Assembly: GCA_017390085.1 (NCBI GenBank)
Contig: JAFPDB010000140.1
Coordinates: 1-52,688, forward strand
Reading direction: 5' to 3'
From: Bacteroidales bacterium
Lineage (GTDB): Bacteria; Bacteroidota; Bacteroidia; Bacteroidales; Marinilabiliaceae
Length of the DNA: 52,688 nt
A program made the translations under genes and the position numbers. The first letter of the stretch is position 1, and each line of letters opens with the position of its first letter. Of the stretch, positions 1,785-43,529 are shown in pieces. The notes beneath the pieces are model-generated. The model was not told where the DNA came from. It worked only from the letters and a program-made list of their open reading frames with translations, and did no database searches.

Positions 1785-2684
1785 ATGAAAAACATAGACG
1801 AAATCCTCAGCGAATACGCCTACGACGCCAGCGGGCTCGACGACCTGGGCCCCGCCCTCGACGCGTTGCGGGCCAAATCGGCATCGCACCTCGACGACGC
1901 TGCCGCCCTCGAGACCATGTTCAACAGCATAGACCTGACGACATTGAGCCACACCGACTCGGCCTCGAGCGTCAGGGTCTTCGTGGAGAAAGTCAACAAG
2001 TTCGCCACGGAATACCCTGACATAAAGAACGTTGGCGGCATCTGCGTATACTCCGTCTTCGCGCCAATCTTGAAGAGTGCGCTGAAAGTCGACGGCGTGC
2101 ACCGCGCCGTCGTGGCCGCCTGCTTCCCCTCGTCGCAAGCCTTTGCCGACATCAAGGCCGCCGAAGTCAGCAAATCCGTCGAGGCAGGCGCCACGGAAGT
2201 CGACGTGGTTATCTCGGTCGGGGAATTCCTGGACCATGAATACCAGTTTGTGTATGAAGAGCTGCTGAAGCTGCGCGAGGCTTGCGGCGGCGCGCGTCTG
2301 AAAGTCATTTTGGAGACCGGCGCCATCCCGACGCACAGGCAGATGTGGGAGGCCAGCATTATCGCCATGGAGGCGGGCGCCGACTTCATCAAGACCAGCA
2401 CGGGCAAGAACTGCGGCGGCGCCACCCCCGAGGCCGCCATGGTGATGTGCGCGGCCATCAAGGCCTACGCCGCGAAGACGGGCCGCAAAGTGGGCTTCAA
2501 GCCCGCCGGAGGCGTATCGACGGCCGAGGAGGCGTGCCTCTACTACGAAATCGTCAGGTCGACGCTCGGCCAGGAGTGGCTCGTCAACACCCTCTTCCGC
2601 ATCGGGGCGAGCCGTCTGGCCAACAACCTGCTCGGCCGAATCCTTGAACTCAAAGGACGGCCATCCGCCGAGAAATTCTTCTAA
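1785..2684 (+). CDS. deoC: deoxyribose-phosphate aldolase (long form)
   Basis: 299 aa with the FIKTSTGK Schiff-base lysine motif and overall DeoC-like sequence. Confidence 0.85.
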   Translation: MKNIDEILSEYAYDASGLDDLGPALDALRAKSASHLDDAAALETMFNSIDLTTLSHTDSASSVRVFVEKVNKFATEYPDIKNVGGICVYSVFAPILKSALKVDGVHRAVVAACFPSSQAFADIKAAEVSKSVEAGATEVDVVISVGEFLDHEYQFVYEELLKLREACGGARLKVILETGAIPTHRQMWEASIIAMEAGADFIKTSTGKNCGGATPEAAMVMCAAIKAYAAKTGRKVGFKPAGGVSTAEEACLYYEIVRSTLGQEWLVNTLFRIGASRLANNLLGRILELKGRPSAEKFF

Positions 2685-2702
2685 AGCAAAGAACCTGACA
2701 CG

Positions 2703-4214
2703 ATGTCGCTGATAAACAAACTCATACTTTCCGCCTACGCGGGACGTTATCGGCAGTTTGACCGCATGGCGACCGACGGCCCAGCCATCCAATCGAATCA
2801 GCTCGACGCCCTGATCCGCCAAGGCTCGAAGACCAAGATAGGCGCGGAGATGGGTCTCCGCCCCGGAATGGGCTACTCCGACTTCAACCGCCAAGTGCCT
2901 GTTGGCGACTACGAGACCCTCCGCCCCTACGTCGAGCGGATACTCGAGGGGGAGACCGACGTCACGTGGCCCGGGCGCGTACGCTGGTTCGCCAAGAGCA
3001 GCGGCACGTCGGGCAGCAAGAGCAAGTTTATCCCCGTCACGGACGACATATTGGCCCATGGCCATATGCGCGGCAACCACGACGTGATAGCCACCTACTT
3101 TCGCCAACACCCCGACAACAAGGTGTGGCGCGGCAAATGCCTCACCCTCGGCGGCAGCAAGAAACTGACCTCCGTCGGGTCCGGAATCCAGACGGGCGAC
3201 CTCTCGGCCATCATGATAGGCAACGCGCCGGCGTGGTCGGGCCTATTCCGCTCGCCGAAAAAGAGCATAGCCCTAATCGCGGGGTGGGAGGAGAAACTGG
3301 AGAAGATAACCCGGGCCACAGCTGGCCAGAACATAACCTCGCTGGCGGGCGTGCCGAGCTGGTTTCTCGTCTTGCTCAAGTACATAATGGAGAAGCAGGG
3401 CGCCAAGACAATCCAGGAGGTGTGGCCAAACTTGGAGCTGTTCATTCACGGCGGCATAAACTTCGGCCCCTACCGCGAACAGTACAAGGCTCTCGCCCCT
3501 GGTGGCATCAACTTCCTGGAGACGTATAACGCGAGCGAGGGCTTCTTCGCCCTGCAAGACGACCCAGCCGATGCCGGCATGAAACTGATGCTCGACTACG
3601 GCGTCTTCTTCGAATTCGTGCCACTCGACGAGGTGGGGCAGGCGCATCCAGCCGGAATCGTGCCACTGGAGGGCGTAGCGACTGGGGTGGACTACGCGAT
3701 GGTCATAACGACCAACGGCGGCCTGTGGCGCTACATGATTGGCGACACCGTCCGTTTCACTCAGACGAAGCCTTGGAAAATCGTCATCAGCGGACGGACG
3801 AAGCTCTACATCAACGCCTTTGGCGAAGAGCTCATGATAAGCAACGCCGAAGCGGCCATGAGCCGCGCCTGCCAAGAGACGGGAGCCGTTGTGAAGGAGT
3901 ATACCGCCGCGCCCGTCTTCATGGACCAGCACACTCGCGGATGCCACGAGTGGCTTGTGGAGTTCGACAAACAGCCGTCGAGCCTGGAGGCCTTCCGCAC
4001 CGCGCTCGACACGGCGCTCCAGAGTGTGAACTCGGACTACGAGGCCAAACGGTATAAAGACATAACACTGGCCCCGCTGCGGCTCACCGTGGCGAAAGAG
4101 GGGCTCTTCGATTGCTGGCTCTCGGCGCACGACAAGATGGGCGGGCAAAACAAAGTGCCGCGCCTGCACAACGACCGCAAGCTGATCGACGAGCTCTTGG
4201 AATTGAACCATTAA
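2703..4214 (+). CDS. GH3 auxin-responsive promoter family (acyl-adenylate forming) protein
   Basis: 503 aa. The SSGTSGSKSKFIPVT P-loop-like motif and the length match the Bacteroidota GH3 family. Confidence 0.8.
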   Translation: MSLINKLILSAYAGRYRQFDRMATDGPAIQSNQLDALIRQGSKTKIGAEMGLRPGMGYSDFNRQVPVGDYETLRPYVERILEGETDVTWPGRVRWFAKSSGTSGSKSKFIPVTDDILAHGHMRGNHDVIATYFRQHPDNKVWRGKCLTLGGSKKLTSVGSGIQTGDLSAIMIGNAPAWSGLFRSPKKSIALIAGWEEKLEKITRATAGQNITSLAGVPSWFLVLLKYIMEKQGAKTIQEVWPNLELFIHGGINFGPYREQYKALAPGGINFLETYNASEGFFALQDDPADAGMKLMLDYGVFFEFVPLDEVGQAHPAGIVPLEGVATGVDYAMVITTNGGLWRYMIGDTVRFTQTKPWKIVISGRTKLYINAFGEELMISNAEAAMSRACQETGAVVKEYTAAPVFMDQHTRGCHEWLVEFDKQPSSLEAFRTALDTALQSVNSDYEAKRYKDITLAPLRLTVAKEGLFDCWLSAHDKMGGQNKVPRLHNDRKLIDELLELNH

Positions 4215-6383: not shown

Positions 6384-7352
6384 ATGGAAATTTCCTTCAT
6401 AGACCTATTTGCTGGCATAGGCGGCATCAGAATCCCGTTCGAGGAACTGGGCTACGAATGCGTCTTCTCCTCTGAGTGGGACAAGGCGGCGCAAGCGTCG
6501 TATGAGGCCAACTTTGGCGAGAAACCGATGGGCGACATCACGAAAATTGCGGAGCAAGACATCCCTCCCCACGACCTGCTCCTTGCCGGATTCCCGTGCC
6601 AAGCGTTCAGCATCATGGGCAAGAAGAGAGGGTTTGAGGACACGAGGGGGACAATGTTTTTTGAAGTCGCAAGAATCCTCAAATACCATCGTCCGCAAGC
6701 TATTCTTCTTGAAAACGTGAAAAACCTCGTGACGCACGACGGGGGAAAGACGTTCGCTGTCATTCGCGACACGCTCACCGAGCTTGGGTACTTCATCAAG
6801 TGGAAAGTACTCAACGCGTTGGACTTCGGACTGCCACAAAAGAGGGAGAGAATCATAATAGTAGGGTTCAGAGACCCGGAAAAGACCGCCCGTTTCGACT
6901 TCGACTTTCAGCCCGTACCATATTCACTAAACGACATTATTGAACCCGACGAGTCGATTGACGACAGCTTGTGGGCATCGGCAACCATAGCCGCCAAGCG
7001 TAAACAGAGCGTCGTAGGGAAAAACGTTTTCTTCCCTTCAGTGTGGCACGAGAATAAATCGGGCAACATATCCGTACTTGACCACTCATGCGCACTACGC
7101 ACGGGGGCATCATACAACTACTTGCTCATCAACGGCGTACGCCGCCCGTCGTCACGAGAACTGCTTCGTTTGCAAGGCTTTCCCGACAGTTTCAAGATAG
7201 TAGTATCGCATGGAGAGATTCGACGCCAAACGGGGAACTCCGTTGCCGTGCCGATGATACGCTCCATTGCCCGAAAAATGTCCAGCCTATTAGACGAGAC
7301 CCAGCACTATGCAACACCCGAAATTAAGAGACCAGAAACGGTTGCTTGTTAG
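6384..7352 (+). CDS. DNA (cytosine-5)-methyltransferase, Type II
   Basis: 322 aa carrying the canonical m5C motifs FAGIGG (I), GFPCQAFS (IV), ENV (VI), QKRERI (VIII) and QTGNSV (X). The N-terminal half resembles M.HhaI-like enzymes. Target specificity cannot be determined by eye. Confidence 0.9.
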   Translation: MEISFIDLFAGIGGIRIPFEELGYECVFSSEWDKAAQASYEANFGEKPMGDITKIAEQDIPPHDLLLAGFPCQAFSIMGKKRGFEDTRGTMFFEVARILKYHRPQAILLENVKNLVTHDGGKTFAVIRDTLTELGYFIKWKVLNALDFGLPQKRERIIIVGFRDPEKTARFDFDFQPVPYSLNDIIEPDESIDDSLWASATIAAKRKQSVVGKNVFFPSVWHENKSGNISVLDHSCALRTGASYNYLLINGVRRPSSRELLRLQGFPDSFKIVVSHGEIRRQTGNSVAVPMIRSIARKMSSLLDETQHYATPEIKRPETVAC

Positions 7353-8046
7353 GGAGCCCTATCCTCTTAACGAGATTCCGGACGAGATAATATACTCGAT
7401 CGGCGGATACTTTGTCTTCCTACTCTATGCGGGACGAAACGACATAAGTGGCGACGACTGGGGCAACGCTTTTGCCGATGCCATTGGTGGCACTCATCTT
7501 GGCAGTCCTCTCGGCATTGCTGATGTCATTCGAGAAAAAATGGCATTGTCAATGAAAACAGTGAAAAATGCGGACCCTTTCTCCGCAAGCTCTGTGAGAA
7601 TAATTAGCGGAAGATGTTCTCCCGACTATTCATACGGCATCACAGATCCTCACGACGACGTAGAAAAAACAGGACGAGCTGTGCTCGAAATTTGGAATGA
7701 ACGCGTAAACATTGCGACAGAAGAGTATTCGCCTGTAAGGAACTGCGTCCTTATCCGTTCTAATGACTTGAAGAGTTTCTGCCTCTTTGAGGAGGACTGT
7801 CACCGATTCCGCACGGCTGACTACACATGGGAGGCAAACAAAAACGGAAATCTAATCGGGATTGAAAAATATACAGGAATAACCCGTTTCACGTGGCAAC
7901 CTCACGGCTCGCAATTCACGATTCATACCACCGTGCCCGACAACGCCCGAAAGTTCACTCTCCGACATCCTGACCCTATGAAGAAGGACGATATACTTGA
8001 AAAAATTGGTTTCGACTCTTCATGGCTAACCTTCACAAACAACTAA
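7309..8046 (+). CDS. putative Type II restriction endonuclease (cognate of the upstream m5C methyltransferase)
   Basis: 245-aa ORF overlapping the methyltransferase stop by 44 nt on the same strand, in the visibly lowest-GC stretch of this region. It has a possible PD-(D/E)xK-like segment (GIADV...LSMKTVK). The function is inferred from context only, and I recognise no named family. Confidence 0.5.
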   Translation: MQHPKLRDQKRLLVREPYPLNEIPDEIIYSIGGYFVFLLYAGRNDISGDDWGNAFADAIGGTHLGSPLGIADVIREKMALSMKTVKNADPFSASSVRIISGRCSPDYSYGITDPHDDVEKTGRAVLEIWNERVNIATEEYSPVRNCVLIRSNDLKSFCLFEEDCHRFRTADYTWEANKNGNLIGIEKYTGITRFTWQPHGSQFTIHTTVPDNARKFTLRHPDPMKKDDILEKIGFDSSWLTFTNN

Positions 8047-8049
8047 CCT

Positions 8050-8721
8050 ATGCCCACACCCTCGCAAAACAGGCTTAATTTCTCACACTTCCCCCTCCAA
8101 TTCATCACCAATGGGCACGATGGAGACGAGTGCGTCGAGCAGGTGAGGCGAGTGTTAGACGGCGGGTGCCTATGGGTCCAGCTCAGGATGAAAGGCGCCG
8201 AGGAGTCGGAAGTAGAGAAGACGGCGCGCAAGATAAAGGCACTGACCGACGAGGCCGGGGCGACCCTCATAATCGACGACCACGTGGGCGTGGCGCAACG
8301 CGTGGGGGCCAGCGGAGTCCACCTCGGGAAGAACGACATGAACCCGGCAGAGGCGAGGACCGCGCTTGGCGAAAAATTCATCATTGGCGGCACGTGCAAC
8401 ACGTTTGACGACATACTGAAAGTGAAAGACTCCGTGGACTACATCGGTTGCGGGCCTTTCCGCTTCACGACGACGAAACAGAATCTCGCCCCCACCCTCG
8501 GCATAGAAGGGTATCGGCAAATCGTATGGCAGTGCCGCAGCGAGGGCGTCAACATCCCCATCGTGGCCATTGGCGGGATTACGACGGCCGACATCGTCGA
8601 CATACTCAACGCCGGACCCGACGGAATAGCCCTTAGCGGCGAGATTCTCCGCTCCGCGTGCATCGAGCAGAAAGTCCGCGAGATTGTGACCGCCATCAAC
8701 AACGCCAAGGCTTCCGAATGA
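8050..8721 (+). CDS. thiE: thiamine-phosphate synthase
   Basis: 223 aa with LQFITN start region, HLGKNDM and AIGGI motifs typical of ThiE. It starts 4 nt after the putative endonuclease stop. Confidence 0.85.
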   Translation: MPTPSQNRLNFSHFPLQFITNGHDGDECVEQVRRVLDGGCLWVQLRMKGAEESEVEKTARKIKALTDEAGATLIIDDHVGVAQRVGASGVHLGKNDMNPAEARTALGEKFIIGGTCNTFDDILKVKDSVDYIGCGPFRFTTTKQNLAPTLGIEGYRQIVWQCRSEGVNIPIVAIGGITTADIVDILNAGPDGIALSGEILRSACIEQKVREIVTAINNAKASE

Positions 8722-11700
8722 CACACCCGCGGCTCTCCGCCATAACGATTTGCTCCTTGCTCCTCTCCGCCACGGCAACGGGCCAGAAGAGCGTGTCAAT
8801 ATCATGCGGCGAGGACTTCCTTTCAGCCGTCGCGACAAAGACGTATGACGGCACGTCGCGAATTGCGGAAGCCACGCGACAATACATAGCGACGAAAAAA
8901 ATCGCACCAACCATAGACGGCATCGACCAGGGCGACGACGTGACCGTCTGGTTCGACGGCTATTATGCCGACGAGCAGGGGCTGGAGGCGCAAGACGTGG
9001 CAAGCGTCACGCAACTGTTCCTCACGCTGAGCCTCGAGGGAGCCGATGCCTACAAGTATTCCGTGGCGAGCGACGCGACTCTCAACATGCCAGCCAACGT
9101 CAAACCGCTGAACCTTACGAGCGACACAGGATCGCCCATAGCGCAAGAGTTATTGCAAGCCTTCTACACATTTGAGTTTCAAGACACTGAGCTTCGGCGC
9201 GAGATAAGACCACTAAAGAAAGGGGGCGGAGTCTTTAAACTTAGAGACGAAAAGCTTCTCATCTACACCAACGCCGACGAGGGGTTCGCAGTCTACGCCA
9301 CGCAGGGCTACATCCCCAGCTTCGAGACCCTCGGCAAGGCCAAGATGCTCAAGATAGACCTCACCTGCGAGGGCAACGCGAATTACACCATCGACCCGCA
9401 CCGGACCAACTATTGCGACGATTGCGCTTCCGTCATCAATACACGCCCGCGATATGTGGTAAAGCCCGACACGGTTGTCGACTACGGAACTAAAGTCATG
9501 CTCGTGGCGCAGGACCCCCCCACGTGCACGACATACATTTACTACGGCACCGATTCCGCCACCAAGACCAAAGACCTGCCGGGCGGAATACTATGCGCGG
9601 GCAGGCACACGCTGACGGCCGTGCCGGTGAAAACTGACAACTATGACGACGCCCCGCAACACTTCAGCGTCAACGTCCGCCCCCGAGTGCTGACCGTTAA
9701 TGGCACGCCCTCCGTCGCGTCGCGCGCCTACGACGGCACGTGCCTTCCCGGCTCAATCTCGCTACCCGAACTCGACAAGTCCAACGTCTGGCAAGACGAC
9801 ACCGTCTCGCTACGCTACGAGGTCGACGCCTCGGCGGTCAAGCCCGCGGCGGGAAACTACATCTTGAGCCTCACGCCGCGCCTGACAAACCCCAACTACA
9901 CACTTGACGACCTCTCGACCCTCTTCATAACATTCAGCATAACAGAGGCCAAAACCCCCACCCTGTCGCTCACTGGCGACGAGCTGCCCTCCGTCGACAA
10001 GACATACGACGGCACGACGGAACTGCCGCTCCCCGAGGGCGGCGTGGCCCTGCCCGACAACAACGCCCACATAACCGGCGCCTACTACGACTCGCGCAAC
10101 GCCGGAAAGCGCGGCATAACAGTTGTCGTGAAGCCGGACGACAACTACCTGCTCGACGACGGGACAAAAGAACGCGAAGTCACCTACCCCAAGACCGGCA
10201 CAATCCTCAAACGCGACCTGACCATCAACCCCGACGCGGCCGTTGAGCCTAAAACATACGACGGCACCACGGGCATCGACCTCAAAACCATCACGTTGCC
10301 GACCCTCAACGGCGTAATAGCCGGCGACGACGTGCTGCTAAAGCCCGTCAACGCCGAAACCGACAAACCAGACCCCGGCAAACGCACCGCCACCATAAGT
10401 TTTGCCGCCCTAATGGGCGACGACGCGGCCAACTACGCGTTGAAAACACTGAAAACCACCGCGCCGGTCATTATCAATCCACGAGTCAAAAACGAGGTTC
10501 GCATCGTCTTGCGCGGCGACACGGCACTCACCTATGGGCAATCGACCATAGGCGCGTCGGACCCGGCCGACCTGCATATCGAGACCGAACCCCTCATAAG
10601 CGGCACTCTCATCATCGACGGGCATGAGGGAGGCGTGGCTCTCAACGCAGGCGTCAACGTGATCCGCCTCACGTTCGTGCCGCAAGACACGCTGACCTAC
10701 GCCACAGCCGACACCGTCGTCACAATCAGGGTGGCGCGGCGCAAGCTGTCGACCTACGGCTCTTTCGCCGCCATGAGCAAGATATACGACGGCACGACCA
10801 GCGTCGAAACGTCGACACTCACCCTGCCAGCGATTATCGGGTCCGTCGAGGGCGACGACATCGACCTGACAGTCGCGGAAGCCCATTTCGCCACGAAAAA
10901 CGTTGGCGGCAATTCCGTCGCCGCCCAACTCTCACTCTCGGGCAAAGACGCCGCCAACTACACCATTTCCGCCAACCTGCTGCAAGTGGAGGCCGACGCC
11001 CAGATTACGCCCCTCGCCCTCACGCTAACCGACACATTCGCCTCCTCGGGAAAAGTTTACGACGGTACGGCAGATATCGACAACGACAAGCTCACGCTCC
11101 CTGAAATCGTGGGGTCTATTGACGGCGACAACATTGGTTTGAAAATTAAAACGGCCTCGTTCGCTTCGGCAAGCGTCGGAAGCAATTCAGTCCACGCCAC
11201 GCTCACTCTCTCGGGCGACGACGCAGCCAACTACACAATCGACGAGAGACTCTTGAATGTCGAGGCGCAAGCGGAAGTTTCGCCCCGACCTGTCACGTTC
11301 TATGGCTCATTCGCTGCAAAAGACAAAGTCTACGACAGGACGACGGACGTAAATCCTGATTCCGTATCCCTACCAAAATTTGAAGGAGTCATAAATGGCG
11401 AAGATATTACTTTAAAAATTGAGAGCTTATTCTTCGCAACAAAGGAAGCTGGCCAAAACACCGTGATTGCCACATTATCACTCTCGGGCGACGACGCAGC
11501 CAACTACTCGGTCGACGAAGCCCTGCTCTCGGTCGAGACGGAGGCCGCAATTCTTCCTAAACCATTGACCTACAATCCGCTGATTGCCAAGTTCGAACCA
11601 AGGTATTACGACGGGACAACCATAGTGGCCGACAGCCAAATCGTATGCCTCCCTCACCTCGTCGGCATAATCCTCGGCGACGAAGTCTCGCCCGTTTGGA

Positions 11701-12728
11701 CGGCGGAATACGAGTCGGCGGAGGTAGGACCTAACGACATAATCCTCTCATGCTCGCTCACCGGCAAAGACGCCGGCAACTACTCTCGCCCCGACGACAC
11801 GGCAATAAACTGCGAAATCTTGGAGCGTAAGACCGAGCCAACTCCTGAACCTGAACCAACTCCTGAACCTGAACCAACTCCTGAGCCTGAACCAACTCCT
11901 GAGCCCGAGCCATCTCCTGAACCTGAGCCAACTCCTGAGCCCATCGTAGCGACCCTAATATCGTCGCACGTCATGACCATATGCGCGACGGGCGAGGCCA
12001 CCATCATAGCCGTCGTAGAATCCGGGCAACCATCGCACTACAACATCTCGTTCGACGATGCCGCCCTAAAGGCCGGATATGCCGACATAGTGGCGGCGAC
12101 GATACCCGAAACGGATGGTGACGAATACCGTATACCGGTACCGTCGCCCACGGGCGACGCCTACGGGACCATCGGCGGCACACTAACGCTCTGCCAAGCC
12201 GACGGCGCTTGTTCTGCCGCCATACCGTTCAGCATCTCGATCAGGCCGAGCGCGTCGATTGTGGGCGTCAAATTCGGCAACACGCTCTTCGTCGACAACT
12301 CCTCCTACCGCTTCACAGCCTACCAATGGTATGCCGACGGAAAGCCTATCGACGGCGCCACACGCCAATTCTACCACTCGTCGCCACTGCCCGAGGGCGA
12401 CTACACCGTGCGCCTTACACTGGCCGACGGCGATACGGCCGCTACTTGCCCATTTGCCGTAACGTCATTGCCCGACACGGATTCCAACTCACTCTCACTT
12501 TCGCCAAGCCCCGCAACGTTCGGGGCGAGCGTCAGGGTCGTGGCGACCGAAATTGCGGACGGAGAAGAGTTGACCGTTGAATTCTTCAACGCTTCTGGCT
12601 CGCTTTGCGAAAAGGCGACAGTAAGGAACGGCGAGACAATCGCCGTCACGCTCAGGCAGGGCGTTTACGCCGTCAGGTGCACGAGCGGCGGCTCCCGCGC
12701 TGGCCAGACCACATTTGCAGTCAAATAA
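8718..12728 (+). CDS. large T9SS-sorted cell-surface repeat protein (YDGT/MBG-like repeats, adhesin-like)
   Basis: The start was set at ATG 8718 (signal peptide MTHPRLSAITICSLLLSATATGQ), which overlaps the thiE stop as ATGA. There are at least 8 repeats of the pattern (K)xYDGTT...LP...G...GDD...L......AANY. An (EPTPEP)n linker follows. The C-terminal ~80 aa (LSLSPSPA...GVYAVRC...TTFAVK) resembles a T9SS type A sorting domain. Confidence 0.85.
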   Translation: MTHPRLSAITICSLLLSATATGQKSVSISCGEDFLSAVATKTYDGTSRIAEATRQYIATKKIAPTIDGIDQGDDVTVWFDGYYADEQGLEAQDVASVTQLFLTLSLEGADAYKYSVASDATLNMPANVKPLNLTSDTGSPIAQELLQAFYTFEFQDTELRREIRPLKKGGGVFKLRDEKLLIYTNADEGFAVYATQGYIPSFETLGKAKMLKIDLTCEGNANYTIDPHRTNYCDDCASVINTRPRYVVKPDTVVDYGTKVMLVAQDPPTCTTYIYYGTDSATKTKDLPGGILCAGRHTLTAVPVKTDNYDDAPQHFSVNVRPRVLTVNGTPSVASRAYDGTCLPGSISLPELDKSNVWQDDTVSLRYEVDASAVKPAAGNYILSLTPRLTNPNYTLDDLSTLFITFSITEAKTPTLSLTGDELPSVDKTYDGTTELPLPEGGVALPDNNAHITGAYYDSRNAGKRGITVVVKPDDNYLLDDGTKEREVTYPKTGTILKRDLTINPDAAVEPKTYDGTTGIDLKTITLPTLNGVIAGDDVLLKPVNAETDKPDPGKRTATISFAALMGDDAANYALKTLKTTAPVIINPRVKNEVRIVLRGDTALTYGQSTIGASDPADLHIETEPLISGTLIIDGHEGGVALNAGVNVIRLTFVPQDTLTYATADTVVTIRVARRKLSTYGSFAAMSKIYDGTTSVETSTLTLPAIIGSVEGDDIDLTVAEAHFATKNVGGNSVAAQLSLSGKDAANYTISANLLQVEADAQITPLALTLTDTFASSGKVYDGTADIDNDKLTLPEIVGSIDGDNIGLKIKTASFASASVGSNSVHATLTLSGDDAANYTIDERLLNVEAQAEVSPRPVTFYGSFAAKDKVYDRTTDVNPDSVSLPKFEGVINGEDITLKIESLFFATKEAGQNTVIATLSLSGDDAANYSVDEALLSVETEAAILPKPLTYNPLIAKFEPRYYDGTTIVADSQIVCLPHLVGIILGDEVSPVWTAEYESAEVGPNDIILSCSLTGKDAGNYSRPDDTAINCEILERKTEPTPEPEPTPEPEPTPEPEPTPEPEPSPEPEPTPEPIVATLISSHVMTICATGEATIIAVVESGQPSHYNISFDDAALKAGYADIVAATIPETDGDEYRIPVPSPTGDAYGTIGGTLTLCQADGACSAAIPFSISIRPSASIVGVKFGNTLFVDNSSYRFTAYQWYADGKPIDGATRQFYHSSPLPEGDYTVRLTLADGDTAATCPFAVTSLPDTDSNSLSLSPSPATFGASVRVVATEIADGEELTVEFFNASGSLCEKATVRNGETIAVTLRQGVYAVRCTSGGSRAGQTTFAVK
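10741..11830 (+). repeat. four tandem ~270-bp coding repeats (YDGT/MBG-like domains) inside the adhesin gene
   Basis: Repeat units start near 10741, 11011, 11281 and 11551. The translated units align by eye (FAA.SK.YDGT...LP...G...GDDI.L......FA...VG.N.V.A.L.LSGDDAANY). Confidence 0.7.
11835..11943 (+). repeat. six tandem 18-bp units (gaaccaactcctgaacct-like) encoding an (EPTPEP)n linker
   Basis: Read directly from the sequence at 11835-11943. The units differ only by synonymous or near-synonymous changes. Confidence 0.85.
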
Positions 12729-12771: not shown

Positions 12772-12865
12772 GGCAGTGAGCCACGAGGGGTGCTGAGAAA
12801 GCTCGGCTGAGATTATACCCGGAAAACCTGATTCAGGTAATGCTGACGAAGGGAATACAGGCAAT
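12772..12865 (+). promoter_or_regulatory. TPP (THI-box) riboswitch
   Basis: Contains ACGAGGGGUGC ... CUGAGAUUAUACCC ... AACCUGAUUCAGGUAAUGCUGACGAAGGGAA, which matches the conserved THI-box core (compare E. coli thiM: GGGGUGC, CUGAGA.AUACCC, ACCUGAUCUGGAUAAUGCCAGCG.AGGGAA). It lies upstream of thiS-thiG-thiC-thiH. Confidence 0.85.
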
Positions 12866-12890
12866 TTTTTCTAATCGACGTGCGAAAGCG

Positions 12891-21675: not shown

Positions 21676-21881
21676 TTTCTTGGTTTGAATATTAAAAAAT
21701 TGAACACTGATTGAGCGCGAATATATGCCATTAAAAAATGACTACAAAAGAGGTCTGTATTCAATAACTGATTTTGTTTGAGCAAATGGTAATCAACAAC
21801 CATGCCACAAGCTGTCGACCTTAGGATCTTGCAAGATTTATAGCCCCATTCGGGCTACATTGTTTCTCGTGGAACATACAC

Positions 21882-25586: not shown

Positions 25587-25602
25587 GGTTCCACGTGAAA
25601 CG
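25587..25602. other. parS-like site (GGTTCCACGTGAAACG, 14/16 to TGTTNCACGTGAAACA)
   Basis: Read directly. The core GTTCCACGTGAAAC is identical to the core of the canonical Bacillus-type parS. It is embedded in a 36-bp imperfect palindrome (25577-25612). Confidence 0.5.
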
Positions 25603-35798: not shown

Positions 35799-36797
35799 TT
35801 ATTTAGCAAAATTCTTTGAAAGCTCGAGCATCGCGTCGATAGGGCGTCGAGCCTTGGCTGCCACCTCGGGTGCCACATTGACCTCGGGCCACTCGTATTT
35901 GAGAGTGAGATAGATTTTCTCCAACGTATTGAGCTTCATGAAGTTGCAATTGTTGCAACCGCAAGTGGAGTCGATTGGCGGGGCCGCGATGAGCTCACGG
36001 TCGGGAAACGACTTGCGCATCTGGTGGAGGATTCCGCTCTCGGTAGCTACAATGAAACGCTTGGCCTTGCTCTTGCCTATGTGGGAGAGCAGGGCTGCCG
36101 TTGAGCCCACGAAATCGGCAAGCACGATTATCTGGTGCTTGCACTCGGGATGTGCAATGAGCTCGGCGTCAGGATAGGTCTTTTTGAGGTCGATAATCTT
36201 TTCGAGGCTGAACTGCTCGTGGACGTGGCAAGCGCCGTCCCAAAGGAGCATCTGGCGACCCGTCTGGGCGTTGATGTAGGAGCCCAGGTTACGGTCGGGG
36301 CCGAAGATTATCTTCTCGTCTTTTGGGAAGGAGTTGACGACCTGGAGAGCGTTGGTGCTGGTGACAACGACGTCGGTCATGGCCTTAATCTCGGCCGACG
36401 TGTTGACGTAGCTTACGACCTTATGGCCAGGGTTTTGGGCTAAGAAACGTGCGAAGTCGTCGGGCTGGCAACTGTCGGCGAGGGAGCATCCGGCGTTGAA
36501 GTCGGGAATCAGGACTTTCTTGTCGGGATTGAGTATTTTGACGGTCTCGCCCATGAAGTGCACTCCCGCCAGTAGTATGATGTCGGCTTGGATGCCGACG
36601 GCCTTTTGCGCCAGGGCGAGACTGTCGCCTATAATGTCGGCAATGTCCTGAATGTCGGCCGTCTGGTAGTAATGTGCCATGAGGACGGCATTCTTCTGCT
36701 TCTTGAGCTTTTCGATTTCGGCCAGAAGGTCGATACCTTCAGGAATGGGCTCGCAGACGTAACCCTTCTCCTGCCATGTTTGCTTGACGGTCATCAT
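35799..36797 (-). CDS. nadA: quinolinate synthase
   Basis: 332 aa, NadA-like throughout (VLMAHYYQ, HFMGETVK, GACHVHEQF, CGCNNCNFMK). Confidence 0.9.
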   Translation of the reverse strand: MMTVKQTWQEKGYVCEPIPEGIDLLAEIEKLKKQKNAVLMAHYYQTADIQDIADIIGDSLALAQKAVGIQADIILLAGVHFMGETVKILNPDKKVLIPDFNAGCSLADSCQPDDFARFLAQNPGHKVVSYVNTSAEIKAMTDVVVTSTNALQVVNSFPKDEKIIFGPDRNLGSYINAQTGRQMLLWDGACHVHEQFSLEKIIDLKKTYPDAELIAHPECKHQIIVLADFVGSTAALLSHIGKSKAKRFIVATESGILHQMRKSFPDRELIAAPPIDSTCGCNNCNFMKLNTLEKIYLTLKYEWPEVNVAPEVAAKARRPIDAMLELSKNFAK

Positions 36798-36896
36798 TTC
36801 TGTTTGTTGCCAAAAGCGGACGGTAACTTCCGCCTCACTCTTCAGGGTGATTGTGTCCTAGTGACTGTGGTACATACTACCCAAAAGGTACAATTA

Positions 36897-36904
36897 CAAA
36901 GCTA
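36897..36904 (-). promoter_or_regulatory. candidate -7 promoter box (TAGCTTTG) for nadA
   Basis: Minus-strand TAGCTTTG matches TAnnTTTG about 100 nt upstream of the nadA ATG. No clean -33 box is present. Confidence 0.3.
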
Positions 36905-37005
36905 ACTAATTTATTTTGCTTTCTGACATCCGAAACCCCACTACGGCTCGTATTCGTTAATTGGCCTCTGATATCAACTATGATTTTGATACCGACTGAC
37001 CACTT

Positions 37006-37076
37006 ATATATTATTAATTCCTCATTTACTCTTTAAATAGGAATAATAATAATATAGTCCGTCAATCATGTCAGCA
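37006..37076 (+). repeat. AT-rich palindromic header module, copy A
   Basis: The core tactctttaaataggaataataataatatagtccgtcaatcatgtcag has about 44/48 identity to copy B. It has an internal imperfect inverted repeat (atattattaattcc / ggaataataataatat). Confidence 0.8.
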
Positions 37077-37485
37077 ACAACAAGTTGCTCCCCACCACCC
37101 TACTCGTCCATTGACACCGCCTCGCTGTTAACAAACTGCGCAATCAACTTCAATTTGCGACATAAAACAGTGAGAAACAGCAAATTAACAATCGTATTGT
37201 CAATTGTCGATAACGTAGCCTAACATTACCGACAACCCTGCTCGACCTGTCAGTAAACCATCCAAAACTGTCGGCAACGCACATAATAACGCCCTGCGAA
37301 ACTGACAGGCGAACGTATCTGACAACACGGTCGTCCTTTATTGACAACCTATGTTCTCCAAAATGGACCGAAACTGACCGTTTGAGACGAGAAACTGACA
37401 GGCTCGCCCGCAAAGGGTGGATGCTTTTCGGCCAAAGTCCATTACGAGTGTCAATAACAACCCCCAAAGGGTTACCAACGTCTCA

Positions 37486-37556
37486 ATATTATTATTACTC
37501 ATTACTTACTCTTTAAAAGGAATAATAATAATATAGCTCGTCAATCTTGTCAGTAA
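37486..37556 (+). repeat. AT-rich palindromic header module, copy B
   Basis: The core tactctttaaaaggaataataataatatagctcgtcaatcttgtcag lies 480 bp downstream of copy A in the same orientation. Confidence 0.8.
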
Positions 37557-37952
37557 AACCCACCTGCACACCCATAGCCCGCCATATACTGACAATCTCC
37601 CCACAACACGCCAACCGCACCCCGTGCGCTGCGCAAAGTCAACCCATTGAACCACAACCCACTGACAGCACCAGTGTCAATTGTTCAAAACGCAAGGTCT
37701 GCAACCCAGCAACCATTGCGGCCTTGTTTGTAAAACGGCCGCGCCTGTCCATAAGCTGGCGATAACGCGCCCACATACTGACAGCCCGACGCAACGAACA
37801 ACACTAATCAGGAATCTGACTGCGAAACTGTCCACTCGCCTCCGACAAACTGACATCCCGACCTGATAAACCAACAGAGCCGCCCTGAAACGCTTACGCA
37901 ATAACACTCCCCTCCCCAGGTAGAAACCAACAGATTATCTATTTGATTTTCA

Positions 37953-37960
37953 TAATTTTG
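37953..37960 (+). promoter_or_regulatory. candidate -7 promoter box (TAATTTTG) for hemW
   Basis: Matches TAnnTTTG about 82 nt upstream of the hemW ATG at 38042. Confidence 0.3.
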
Positions 37961-38041
37961 TGGAAAAACATAAGTGAAACCGACAGGAACTGACAATAGT
38001 GTCGAAAACGTGTTAGCAACCTGTTGGTAAATCATACGGAA

Positions 38042-39184
38042 ATGTTTGATTATCAATTGTTTCACGTGGAACATTCGCCTTTCGGGCTGTACATCCACGT
38101 GCCTTTTTGTTTGAAGAAGTGTATCTATTGCGGCTTTTGCAGCGTGATAAATACGTCGTTGATTGACAGGTATTTGGATGTGCTGGCGAAAGAGATGGGG
38201 AGGTCGGCGGTGGCGGGTTTGAAGCCTCGGACTGTGTATGTAGGCGGCGGCACGCCGTCGTGCATTGGAGTACGAAATATCGAAAGGGCTTTGCGGATTG
38301 TGGGTGAGGCTTTTGACTTGAGTGAGATTTTGGAATACACGTTTGAGTGTAATCCGGAGGACGTGGATGATGAGCTGGCCGCGGCGCTTGCGGGCAATGG
38401 CGTGAACCGCGTGAGCATGGGCGTTCAGAGTTTGGATGACAAGATGCTGAAATTCCTCGGGCGACGGCATAAGGCGGCCAAAGTGGGCGAGGCCATTGGC
38501 TCGTTACGGAAGGCAGGGATTGGAAATATTAGTGTGGATTGCATTTATGGGCTGCCGCGAATTGATGGCTTCGACCCGCTTGCCGACGTAGACAGGTTCT
38601 TGGCGTTGGGAGTTGAGCATATGTCGTTCTACTCGCTTCAGTATGAAGAAAATGCCCAGATAACCAGAATGGTCGAGCGGGGCGAAGTGGACATGATGAG
38701 CGACGACGACGTTTGCGACCTCTACGACGCATTGGTCGAGAAGATGCGCGGTGCCGGCTACGTCCACTACGAGCTGTCGAACTTCGCCAAGCCTGGTCGG
38801 GAGTCGAAACACAACTTGTCGTATTGGGACAGAGTGCCTTATTGGTCCTTTGGCCCGGCGGCGGCGTCGTTCGACGGGAAAGTGAGAATGACTAACACGT
38901 GCAACGTGGAAGAGTATCTGGCAAGCGAGGGGCAGAAGAAAAGCCTCGTGGAAAAATTGACCGACGAACAAATCTTCATCGAGCGAGTGATGCTGAAAAT
39001 GCGGAAGAGCGACGGGTTAAACCTTTCGGAAGTCGACGACCGGTATATGCCGTCTTTGCGGGAGAAATTGGGGATTGAAATGAAAGAGGGGAACGTCGTC
39101 AGATTGGCCAACGGGAACTATGCCATTCCCGAGGGGCGTTGGATGGTCTCCGATTCAATCATCGGACGGCTGGCCTTGATTTGA
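38042..39184 (+). CDS. hemW: radical SAM heme chaperone HemW (HemN-like, oxygen-independent coproporphyrinogen oxidase family)
   Basis: The start was set at ATG 38042 (MFDYQLFHVEHSPFGLYIHVPFCLKKCIYCGF, CxxxCxxC motif). The tracked start at 38024 is a TTG. Confidence 0.85.
   Translation: MFDYQLFHVEHSPFGLYIHVPFCLKKCIYCGFCSVINTSLIDRYLDVLAKEMGRSAVAGLKPRTVYVGGGTPSCIGVRNIERALRIVGEAFDLSEILEYTFECNPEDVDDELAAALAGNGVNRVSMGVQSLDDKMLKFLGRRHKAAKVGEAIGSLRKAGIGNISVDCIYGLPRIDGFDPLADVDRFLALGVEHMSFYSLQYEENAQITRMVERGEVDMMSDDDVCDLYDALVEKMRGAGYVHYELSNFAKPGRESKHNLSYWDRVPYWSFGPAAASFDGKVRMTNTCNVEEYLASEGQKKSLVEKLTDEQIFIERVMLKMRKSDGLNLSEVDDRYMPSLREKLGIEMKEGNVVRLANGNYAIPEGRWMVSDSIIGRLALI
38058..38073. other. canonical parS centromere-like site
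   Basis: The plus strand reads TGTTTCACGTGGAACA. Its reverse complement is TGTTCCACGTGAAACA, a 16/16 match to the classic Bacillus-type parS. It lies in codons 6-11 of hemW. Confidence 0.65.
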
Positions 39185-42596: not shown

Positions 42597-43529
42597 CTAC
42601 TCCTCATAAATTGACAACTTTACAATGTTGTTTTTAAGTTGGCCTCTCAGGATGGAAGCTAAGATAGCGTATTGTCCGCCACGCTGTAACCCTGCCGGCA
42701 GGTACATTTTTGCGGGGGTGATGACATCGCCCAGGCTCTGATGCGGACGCTCATCGTTGTAGAATGCGATGAACGAGCCTATTCCCGCACGTAGCCGACT
42801 GACTGTCGCCTCGGGGTATCTGTGCACGTACTCCTGCTTTATTGTGCGCCAAAAGCGCTCTATCCAGATATTGTCCTTGCATCGCCTGCGCCCGTCCATG
42901 CTGATGGCTATTCCGAGCGATTTGAGTGCGTTCACCCACGCGGGGGATGTGTACTGGCTCCCTTGGTCCGAGTTGACGATTTCAAGGCGTCCATGCCTGC
43001 TGACGCACTCCGCGAGCTGCTCCGTGCAGTTCGAGCCCTCAAGTGTGCTGCTCAGGCGCCACCCGACTGTGTATCGGCTGTACACGTCTATTATCGCGTA
43101 AAGGTACATGAACCACTTCTCCATCGGTATGTAGCTTATGTCGGTGCTCCACACCCTGTTGCGCCTGACAATCGGGAGGCCGCGGAGGTGGTACGGGTGG
43201 ACGTACTCGGCGTTCCCCGGCTTGCTGAGCTTGCGCTGCTGCGGGTACACTGCGTGCAGGCGCATCTTGCGCAGTGGTCGCCTGACGCGCTTCGGGTTGG
43301 CGGCGTACCCGTGCATGCGCAGCATCCTCGTCATGGTCATGACACCGGCGGTGGGGTGCGACTGGTAATACTCGTCCATCATGCGCATCATGTCCTTGTT
43401 CTCGTCGCTCTCGCCCTTGCGCTTGTAGTAGTGGCCCGTGCGGGTCAGCCCGGTCAGGGCGCAGTATCGGCTCCAGCTCATGCCTACGGGACGGCGGTCG
43501 GAAAGGCTCTCTATCTGTCCTTTCGACAC
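42597..43529 (-). CDS. IS3-family transposase OrfB (DDE integrase core)
   Basis: 310 aa with WSTDISYIP...YLYAIIDVYSR (D), VNSDQGSQYTS (D) and the downstream E region ERFWRTIKQEY. It would normally be expressed as an OrfAB fusion. Confidence 0.85.
   Translation of the reverse strand: MSKGQIESLSDRRPVGMSWSRYCALTGLTRTGHYYKRKGESDENKDMMRMMDEYYQSHPTAGVMTMTRMLRMHGYAANPKRVRRPLRKMRLHAVYPQQRKLSKPGNAEYVHPYHLRGLPIVRRNRVWSTDISYIPMEKWFMYLYAIIDVYSRYTVGWRLSSTLEGSNCTEQLAECVSRHGRLEIVNSDQGSQYTSPAWVNALKSLGIAISMDGRRRCKDNIWIERFWRTIKQEYVHRYPEATVSRLRAGIGSFIAFYNDERPHQSLGDVITPAKMYLPAGLQRGGQYAILASILRGQLKNNIVKLSIYEE

Follow-up and report, generated by a model that had tools for sequence, protein, structure and literature searches.

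On balance, we favor the view that a gene-free spacer in contig JAFPDB010000140.1, a 52,688-nucleotide stretch from a Marinilabiliaceae genome (hereafter the window, meaning the whole stretch that was analyzed), is the replication origin (oriC) of an uncultured clade of gut Bacteroidales, that the hexamer CTGACA is the core of a clade-specific DnaA box, and that the module carrying these boxes has been duplicated. As part of this joint reading, and with the same moderate confidence, the clade box is proposed to be TTACTGACA (reverse complement TGTCAGTAA), relaxed to (A/T)(A/T)ACTGACA. The spacer (36798-38041, 1,244 bp) was delimited from the list of open reading frames (ORFs) and their Pfam matches, has an AT content of 55%, and is flanked by the divergent nadA gene (35799-36797, minus strand) and a hemW-like radical-SAM gene (ATG at 38042, plus strand). 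Its counterparts on 11 related contigs contain no called genes, except for one 54-amino acid call in the lineage L295.

What might mark a spacer between nadA and hemW as an origin of replication? The corresponding loci of 77 other GTDB species of Bacteroidales and Marinilabiliales were recovered via NadA, with sampled groups that include Parabacteroides, Bacteroides, Phocaeicola, Barnesiella, Paludibacter, Muribaculaceae, Paraprevotella, and Marinilabiliaceae. In these species the nadA-upstream spacer is usually 400-1000 bp long with 63-85% AT, and contains 4-10 words that are at most one mismatch from TTATCAACA or TTATCCACA, compared with about 0.5 in shuffled sequences; the observed box count was reached by 0 of 200 shuffles in most of the 77 loci. 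The most enriched words are TT(A/T)TCAACA(G), and box distances are fixed, 71 plus-strand boxes in 73 loci being found 350-400 bp from the nadA ATG. GC skew at third codon positions (GC3 skew), taken along the coding strand of the genes in these loci, is +0.04 for genes pointing away from the spacer and -0.20 for genes pointing toward it, a difference of 0.244 (bootstrap 95% interval 0.19-0.30) that is seen on both sides, and thus the G-rich strand diverges from the nadA-upstream spacer with origin-like polarity. Presumably, this DnaA-box cluster corresponds to the oriC predictions of origin databases. No experimental work on a Bacteroidota origin was found in literature searches for Bacteroidota oriC, nadA-oriC, and TTATCAACA.

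The window spacer shares this position and has origin-proximal markers around it. A parS centromere site, TGTTTCACGTGGAACA (38058-38073, one mismatch to consensus), adjoins the spacer within codons 6-11 of the hemW-like gene, and only 0.17 matches with up to three mismatches would be expected by chance in the whole window. In all loci where nadA has a hemW homolog nearby, those of the Marinilabiliaceae included, a parS site is retained at the 5' end of that homolog. Two more parS-like sites are present (21861-21876 and 25587-25602, with two and three mismatches, respectively), and both of them and gidA/mnmG lie within 16 kb; the extra sites occupy short gaps next to uvrC and immediately downstream of gidA/mnmG. 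No other DnaA-box cluster was found in the 52.7-kb window. Based on the shared nadA position, the order-wide skew switch, the parS and gidA markers, and the lack of another box cluster in the window, we conclude that the window spacer is the positional ortholog of the putative oriC of the order.

Within the spacer are two tandem modules of about 480 bp that have diverged from each other; they start at 37006 and 37486 and have the same order: an AT-rich palindrome, a AATAATAATAATATAG triplet run, a gap of 2 bp, a pair of abutting co-oriented 9-mers, and then further words. The abutting 9-mers of both modules are CGTCAATC(A/T) followed by TGTCAG(C/T)AA. In module 1, the palindrome, a proposed DNA-unwinding element, spans 37005-37057 and ends in AATAATAATAATATAG (37042-37057). 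No other 50-bp duplex of the window has a lower stability (-47.5 kcal/mol; mean -72.9, sd 5.6), and as a single strand this palindrome forms a hairpin with a z-score of -4.8. Seven NAN triplets run ahead of the module 1 box pair (37060-37077, plus strand), which consists of CGTCAATCA (37060-37068) and TGTCAGCAA (37069-37077) and begins 2 bp past the triplet run, the whole reading TAA TAA TAA TAT AG - TC - CGTCAATCA - TGTCAGCAA. The module 2 palindrome (37486-37536, ending in AATAATAATAATATAG at 37521-37536) directly repeats that of module 1 at a distance of 479-480 bp and is the second least stable 50-bp segment of the window (-47.7 kcal/mol; hairpin z-score -4.6), so that both palindromes lie 4.5 sd from the mean stability of the 52.7 kb. 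It is followed by the abutting box pair CGTCAATCT (37539-37547) and TGTCAGTAA (37548-37556), also on the plus strand.

About 130 bp beyond the box pair there is a composite of TGTCAAT and TGTCGATAA, and then TGTCAGTAA in module 1 or TGTTTGTAA in module 2. The module 1 composite (37198-37213, plus strand) is a conserved block (block C), which in a six-unit alignment with relatives reads TGTCA(A/G)TTGTTGATAAC; its TGTCGATAA is the reverse complement of TTATCGACA and is one mismatch from the DnaA box. In module 2, the block C copy (37675-37690, plus strand) is decayed to TGTCAAT plus TGTTCAAAA. Block E of module 1 is a word in the minus orientation, TGTCAGTAA as read on the plus strand (37248-37256), in an aligned column that is filled by TGTTGGTAA, TGTTGGCAA, or TGTTTATAA in other units; its aligned counterpart in module 2 is the DnaA-box-like TGTTTGTAA (37725-37733, plus strand). 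Each module also possesses 4-6 plus-strand (A/T)(A/T)ACTGACA words and one TTATTGACA. The words of the module 1 array (37299-37400), placed in conserved blocks, are AAACTGACA (37299 and 37392), TATCTGACA (37316), TTATTGACA (37338), and AAACTGACC (37371), and in the aligned columns of relatives they alternate with ATTGACA, TTATTGAC(A/G), AAACCAACA, and AAATAAACA, with the order kept. The module 2 array (37586-37855) contains ATACTGACA (37586 and 37775), CCACTGACA (37659), AATCTGACT (37813), and AAACTGACA (37847) on the plus strand.

This arrangement is conserved within the clade. Six contigs of uncultured gut-metagenome Bacteroidales, from sources that include pig gut, are 97-100% identical, and the nearest species genomes have a NadA identity of 86-87%; a HemW search returned about 30 protein clusters with identities of 49-56% and a single cluster with 86%. 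Nine lineages were compared (the window, L290, L007/L293, L008, L009, L291, L292, L294, and L295), and all nine possess the synteny of ruvB, a receiver-only response regulator, nadA, the spacer, and hemW, together with the word array. In an unbiased screen of the spacers of eight species, ACTGACA was the top 7-mer, with 30 copies compared with 0.69 expected and a presence in all eight, followed by TGTTGATAA-type words (14 on one strand and 0 on the other) and then by TTATTGACA. Retention of the words in orthologous spacers, which the first-pass annotation of this DNA had named as a check on its own reading, is therefore confirmed for same-clade spacers. The overall identity between units is just 40-54%, yet the word order is constant. 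Two modules are found in four lineages and one in the remaining lineages, and the 11 units from eight lineages share the order of palindrome, NAN triplets, a 1-4-bp spacer, and two abutting, co-oriented 9-mers with a start-to-start distance of 9 bp, the trio-proximal box being the more variable. Triplet runs of 5-7 are present in nine of the 11 units, the two L008 units having only one triplet in frame; L009 reads TAG TAA TAA TAG TAA - TC - GGTCAGTTA - TGTCAGTAT. Among the six near-identical strains, one of 58 variable columns is inside a word (at 36928) compared with 4.3 expected, which gives weak support for constraint. In L294, the spacer (1957-3500, 1,544 bp) has an extra parS site at spacer positions of about 518-535, and a stretch of about 400 bp (positions of about 600-1000) that contains long inverted repeats is inserted between the two AT-rich elements; this spacer is rich in G in the first half and in C in the second.

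The module can also be recognized outside the clade. A loose pattern places its layout at about 50 bp from the start codon of nadA in about 27 of 75 other Bacteroidales loci. The box-pair position in other Bacteroidales, Bacteroidaceae included, is occupied by TGATGATAATAG - GC - TGTTAATAG - TGTTAGTAA, by TGTCAATAG - TGTCCATAA, or by TGTTGATAG - TGTCGATAA, and the clade pair GGTCAATAG-TGTCAGTAA is one or two substitutions from the pairs at that position; the same distance separates TGTCAGTAA from the word in the distal box of those species. In many Bacteroidales (loci L010-L086), TGATGATAATAG-SS-TGTTNATAG-TGTNNGTAA is located about 20-80 bp upstream of the nadA ATG, and the nadA -7 box is about 190-200 bp upstream, beyond the module. 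The module thus lies between the nadA -7 box and the start codon in these species, and nadA transcription would therefore cross the proposed unwinding module. The window differs in that the nadA promoter is between nadA and module 1.

The CTGACA array itself had been singled out by the first-pass annotation, and its counts are reproduced here. Between 36923 and 37995 there are nine plus-strand copies (36923, 37302, 37319, 37395, 37589, 37662, 37778, 37850, and 37990), three minus-strand copies, visible as TGTCAG (37069, 37248, and 37548), and the variants CTGACC (36996 and 37374) and CTGACT (37816). The claimed excess over a chance expectation of about 0.3-0.4 CTGACA for 1.07 kb holds, and it holds also against the background of the window: the other 51.4 kb contain 13 plus-strand and six minus-strand copies, a rate that predicts 0.27 plus-strand copies for the array stretch compared with the nine observed (Poisson P about 1e-11 to 2e-11; about 30-fold in density), and first-order Markov simulations of the spacer yield a mean of 0.5 copies and a maximum of 4. 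The longer words GAAACTGAC (37298, 37370, and 37391) and GAAACTGTC (37824) are where they were said to be, and the spurious minus-strand ORF (37150-37467) does contain SLSVS, SVSV, and LSVS. Both arms of a proposed long-range inverted repeat, CCTGTCAG and CTGACAGG, exist, but the first is at 37246-37253, one base from the coordinates assigned to it, and CTGACAGG, at 37302, has a second copy at 37395. Helical phasing of the copies was also proposed, and is not borne out by the 12 plus-strand positions (Rayleigh p = 0.95, 0.69, and 0.51 at 10, 10.5, and 11 bp, respectively), the gaps between plus-strand words ranging from 17 to 306 bp. The three copies that were listed as inverted are present but are not stray: each is at a fixed position in a module, two of them being the distal box beside the AT-rich unwinding element, and because of these fixed places they are not noise. 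As for the suggestion of iterons or cooperative protein sites, the analysis supports the words behaving as an ordered, orientation-specific array of putative protein-binding sites in a noncoding spacer, but not a plasmid-type iteron, given the irregular spacing, the absence of a rep gene, and the absence of a plasmid match. What was overlooked is that the CTGACA words are the 3' part of a 9-bp DnaA-box-like word, and that by position the spacer corresponds to the Bacteroidales DnaA-box cluster, the probable oriC.

To which family might this longer word belong? The skeleton TTA-NNN-ACA occurs 52 times in the eight clade spacers compared with 7.6 in simulations (maximum 17), and nine times in the window spacer, and its middle triplets in the eight spacers are CTG (11), TCA (11), TTG (8), and CCA (7). 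In orthologous columns, TGTCAGTAA interchanges with TGTTGGTAA or TGTTTATAA, and AAACTGACA interchanges with TTATTGACG, AAACCAACA, or AAATAAACA. Because of the shared skeleton and the interchange of columns, the ACTGACA word can be viewed as a probable member of a local DnaA-box family, TTAYYRACA. The CTGACA flavor of this family is specific to the clade, since it is not enriched in other Bacteroidales origins (three copies in 74 x 480 bp). It is possible, and we raise it tentatively, that the clade origin has been rewired, the ancestral TTATCAACA boxes having been largely replaced by (A/T)(A/T)ACTGACA read by a DnaA of shifted specificity or by a new clade-specific regulator, with the duplicated module providing two potential opening sites.

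By analogy with basal unwinding in Bacillus subtilis, DnaA would bind the two abutting co-oriented boxes beside the TAA/TAG triplet run, would oligomerize along the TAA/TAG triplets, and the oligomer would then open the adjoining AT-rich palindrome; either module might be the one that fires. The words TGTCGATAA, TGTTGGTAA, and TTATTGACA and the 4-6 ACTGACA words of each module would be extra initiator sites, probably of lower affinity, that build or regulate the oligomer. The basal unwinding system (BUS) comprises a co-oriented DnaA-box pair, a short spacer, and DnaA-trios (NAN), of which GAT is the commonest next to the box, and its trio-proximal box is less conserved (PMC8287927, PMC10721633). 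The clade module resembles the BUS of B. subtilis (PMC8287927, PMC10721633, PMC6669920) in having two co-oriented abutting 9-mers, of which the distal one is the better box, a spacer of 1-4 bp, at least three NAN triplets with TAG or TAA by the boxes, and an easily melted AT-rich segment beyond. At least three NAN triplets within 16 bp of a box, with an AT-rich region after them, are found in nine of the 11 units. Unlike the BUS, the clade boxes are 3-5 mismatches from TGTGGATAA, the AT-rich part is palindromic, the module is doubled at a distance of 480 bp, and dnaA is not adjacent. On the trio strand of B. subtilis the order is TAG TAG ... GGCC TGTGGATTT TGTGGATAA.

Other known origins offer partial likenesses. 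The clusters of the other Bacteroidales and Marinilabiliales share the nadA-adjacent position, the module of triplet run and box pair, some TGTTGATAA-type boxes, and, in several families, the nearby parS and hemW; unlike them, the clade spacer is 2-3 times longer, less AT-rich (55% rather than 63-85%), poor in TTATCAACA-type boxes, and rich in ACTGACA, and the window module is duplicated and lies at about 265 bp, rather than about 50 bp, from the nadA ATG. [quoted passage not shown] In the clade, however, the change is in the central triplet (TCA to CTG) with the TTA and ACA flanks kept, older-type boxes coexist with the new ones, and the binding is predicted. In Escherichia coli oriC, high- and low-affinity DnaA sites form two oppositely oriented arrays (PMC5742627, PMC13643167). 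Like that origin, the clade spacer has near-consensus and degenerate sites in a fixed order and orientation beside an unwinding element, but the low-affinity sites of E. coli have a regular 2-bp spacing whereas the clade gaps are 17-300 bp without phasing.

Several observations weigh against the spacer being the origin of this clade, and others against DnaA being the protein that reads the words. The order-wide skew test resamples homologous gene families across loci and depends on ORF-based gene calls. The dnaA gene is absent from the window. A skew switch is not resolvable in the window or in the clade: left of the spacer, GC3 skew in the window is -0.275 for minus-strand and -0.286 for plus-strand genes, and the right side hints at polarity with few genes. 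The window spacer contains two canonical or Bacteroidales boxes with at most one mismatch in 1244 bp, which is not significant, and at 55% AT it is not AT-rich for the order. The word TGTCAGTAA differs from TGTGGATAA at three central positions, and TGTCAGTAA and TGTCAGCAA are 3-4 mismatches from TGTGGATAA and TGTTGATAA, which exceeds the two mismatches allowed in BUS searches when judged by the standard motif, which may not be the motif of the clade. The published limit is at most two mismatches for the better box, with a species-specific motif being used where DoriC lists one (PMC8287927). Most plus-strand words begin with AAA or ATA rather than TTA, and TGTCA(A/G)T of block C starts 7 bp before TGTTGATAA. 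The whole-strand GC skew of the window was set aside as an origin signal, as it is dominated by the coding strand.

If the spacer is the origin, could the ACTGACA words, or at least the plus-strand AAACTGACA, be read by a second, clade-specific protein that regulates the origin as CtrA, Spo0A, SeqA, or an orphan methyltransferase does? We regard this as unlikely, though there is a case for it. The near absence of CTGACA from other Bacteroidales origins (three in 74 x 480 bp), the A-rich 5' part of the plus-strand words, and the persistence alongside them of canonical-type TGTTGATAA boxes, strictly in one orientation (14 and 0), would all fit a separate reader, and the 7-bp offset in the composite TGTCA(A/G)T-TGTTGATAA is too close for two 9-bp DnaA boxes, so that a second protein fits better there. 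Against this, the palindrome-proximal words occupy the box-pair position, which is DnaA-box-like in other Bacteroidales, the orthologous columns interchange with DnaA-box-like words, and the locus lacks a linked candidate gene for a DNA-binding protein, the neighboring response regulator being receiver-only.

A quite improbable alternative is that the DnaA-box cluster does not fire in this clade and is a relic, or a titration or regulatory locus (datA/DARS-like, or controlling nadA and hemW), with the origin elsewhere. The lack of a resolvable skew switch in the window, the depletion of canonical boxes, and the modest AT content would be accommodated by such a locus, and non-origin DnaA-box clusters are known in other bacteria (PMC3245932, PMC2533591). 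It is disfavored by the ordered, unwinding-type architecture that is kept across lineages of 40-54% identity, by the presence in the spacer of the two least stable duplex segments of the window, by the parS that abuts the spacer, by the absence of another box cluster from the 52.7 kb, and by the order-wide skew switch at the orthologous spacer.

It is very improbable that the spacer encodes one or two noncoding RNAs, either an ACUGACA protein sponge or a structure that pairs GUCAG with CUGAC. Folding is more stable than that of shuffled sequences (z-scores of -4.4 and -4.7 for unit 1 and -2.6 and -1.4 for unit 2) and the motif repeats in an A-rich context, but these z-scores do not discriminate between the readings because they are similar on both strands, as for DNA palindromes. 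There were no Rfam matches in the spacer at the gathering threshold or at E = 10, there is no internal -7 box, the two boxes in the spacer belonging to nadA and hemW, and only short words are conserved, the gaps between them being variable and the base skew opposite among relatives. The direct repeats with an orientation bias might suggest a plasmid-type iteron origin, a mobile-element remnant, or a genome-wide polar word of the type of FtsK-orienting polar sequences (KOPS) or architecture-imparting sequences (AIMS), all of which we consider barely credible. Plasmid iterons (RK2 TrfA, pPS10 RepA) are likewise direct repeats of short words near an AT-rich region, and the RK2 iteron also begins TGACAG, but the clade has no rep gene, no regular 20-22-bp spacing, and only 7-9 conserved bp, its flanks are chromosomal housekeeping genes in conserved synteny, and blastn against 72,556 plasmids gave no match. 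A KOPS-type reading, which the first-pass annotation had considered, has no support in the window, as the enrichment is local and the 19 copies outside follow gene orientation without switching polarity at the spacer. A restriction-modification or methylation motif was also considered, and conservation across at least nine lineages argues against an ordinary restriction-modification system. A ATATARNNNGTCARNNNNGTCAG pattern scan of viral and metagenome contigs was rejected, its 14 specified bases being too weak and yielding chance matches, for example in Firmicutes gidA.

In the light of the origin reading, the order-wide origin would be placed upstream of nadA, with an unwinding module of box pair and triplets, and with parS close by in several families, in a dominant gut phylum, the Bacteroidota. 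A clade with a drifted central triplet and a doubled module could be viewed as a natural experiment on DnaA-box specificity and on the evolution of origin architecture. The word set would be useful for oriC prediction and for peak-to-trough growth-rate estimates in uncultured gut bacteria, and the spacer sequences are candidates for replicating vectors.

There are only two matches to the TAnnTTTG -7 box in the spacer, one facing nadA and the other facing hemW. The nadA -7 box is TAGCTTTG (36897-36904, minus strand), and its equivalent upstream of nadA in other Bacteroidales, GCAAAGTTA, shows strong conservation. The plus-strand words nearest to nadA (36920-37001) are TTTCTGACA (36920) and CGACTGACC (36993). 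On the other side, the hemW -7 box TAATTTTG (37953-37960, plus strand) overlaps TGTGGAAAA (37959-37967, plus strand), the reverse complement of TTTTCCACA and one mismatch from the DnaA box. The last plus-strand word, GAACTGACA (37987-37995), is within the hemW leader, and TGTTGGTAA (38022-38030, plus strand; reverse complement of TTACCAACA) is the decayed counterpart of a tandem TGTTGATAA pair that relatives have just before hemW. The nadA leader closes with a GC hairpin and then a T run (GCGGAAGTTACCGTCCGC TTTTGG; 36810-36833, minus strand) 13 nt before the ATG, which resembles a terminator or attenuator, has no Rfam match, and differs in the sister species L290 in its loop only. Two types of promoter were tried and rejected. 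Sigma-70-type matches (minus-strand CTGACA-17-TATTAT at both palindromes) arise incidentally from the box pair and the AT run, and Bacteroidetes promoters are of the TAnnTTTG type. An extracytoplasmic function-type promoter (GAAAC...CGT) would need another spacing, and there is no conserved sequence downstream of the words.

Coding-strand GC3 skew is strongly negative (-0.02 to -0.47) for every window gene that was checked, with the hemW-like gene (38042-39184), at +0.19, as the exception. Elsewhere in the window, a C-5 cytosine DNA methylase gene and, after it, an overlapping ORF of 245 amino acids without a Pfam match (6384-8046) may form a restriction-modification pair. An ORF of 1,356 amino acids (8658-12728) contains five repeats of the YDG domain and an acidic, low-complexity repeat region, and a thiamine pyrophosphate riboswitch (12776-12873; 56 bits, above the gathering score) precedes thiC and thiamine-biosynthesis genes. 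An rve-family integrase/transposase ORF (42597-43529, minus strand) is located about 5 kb from the spacer, where the AT content is higher.

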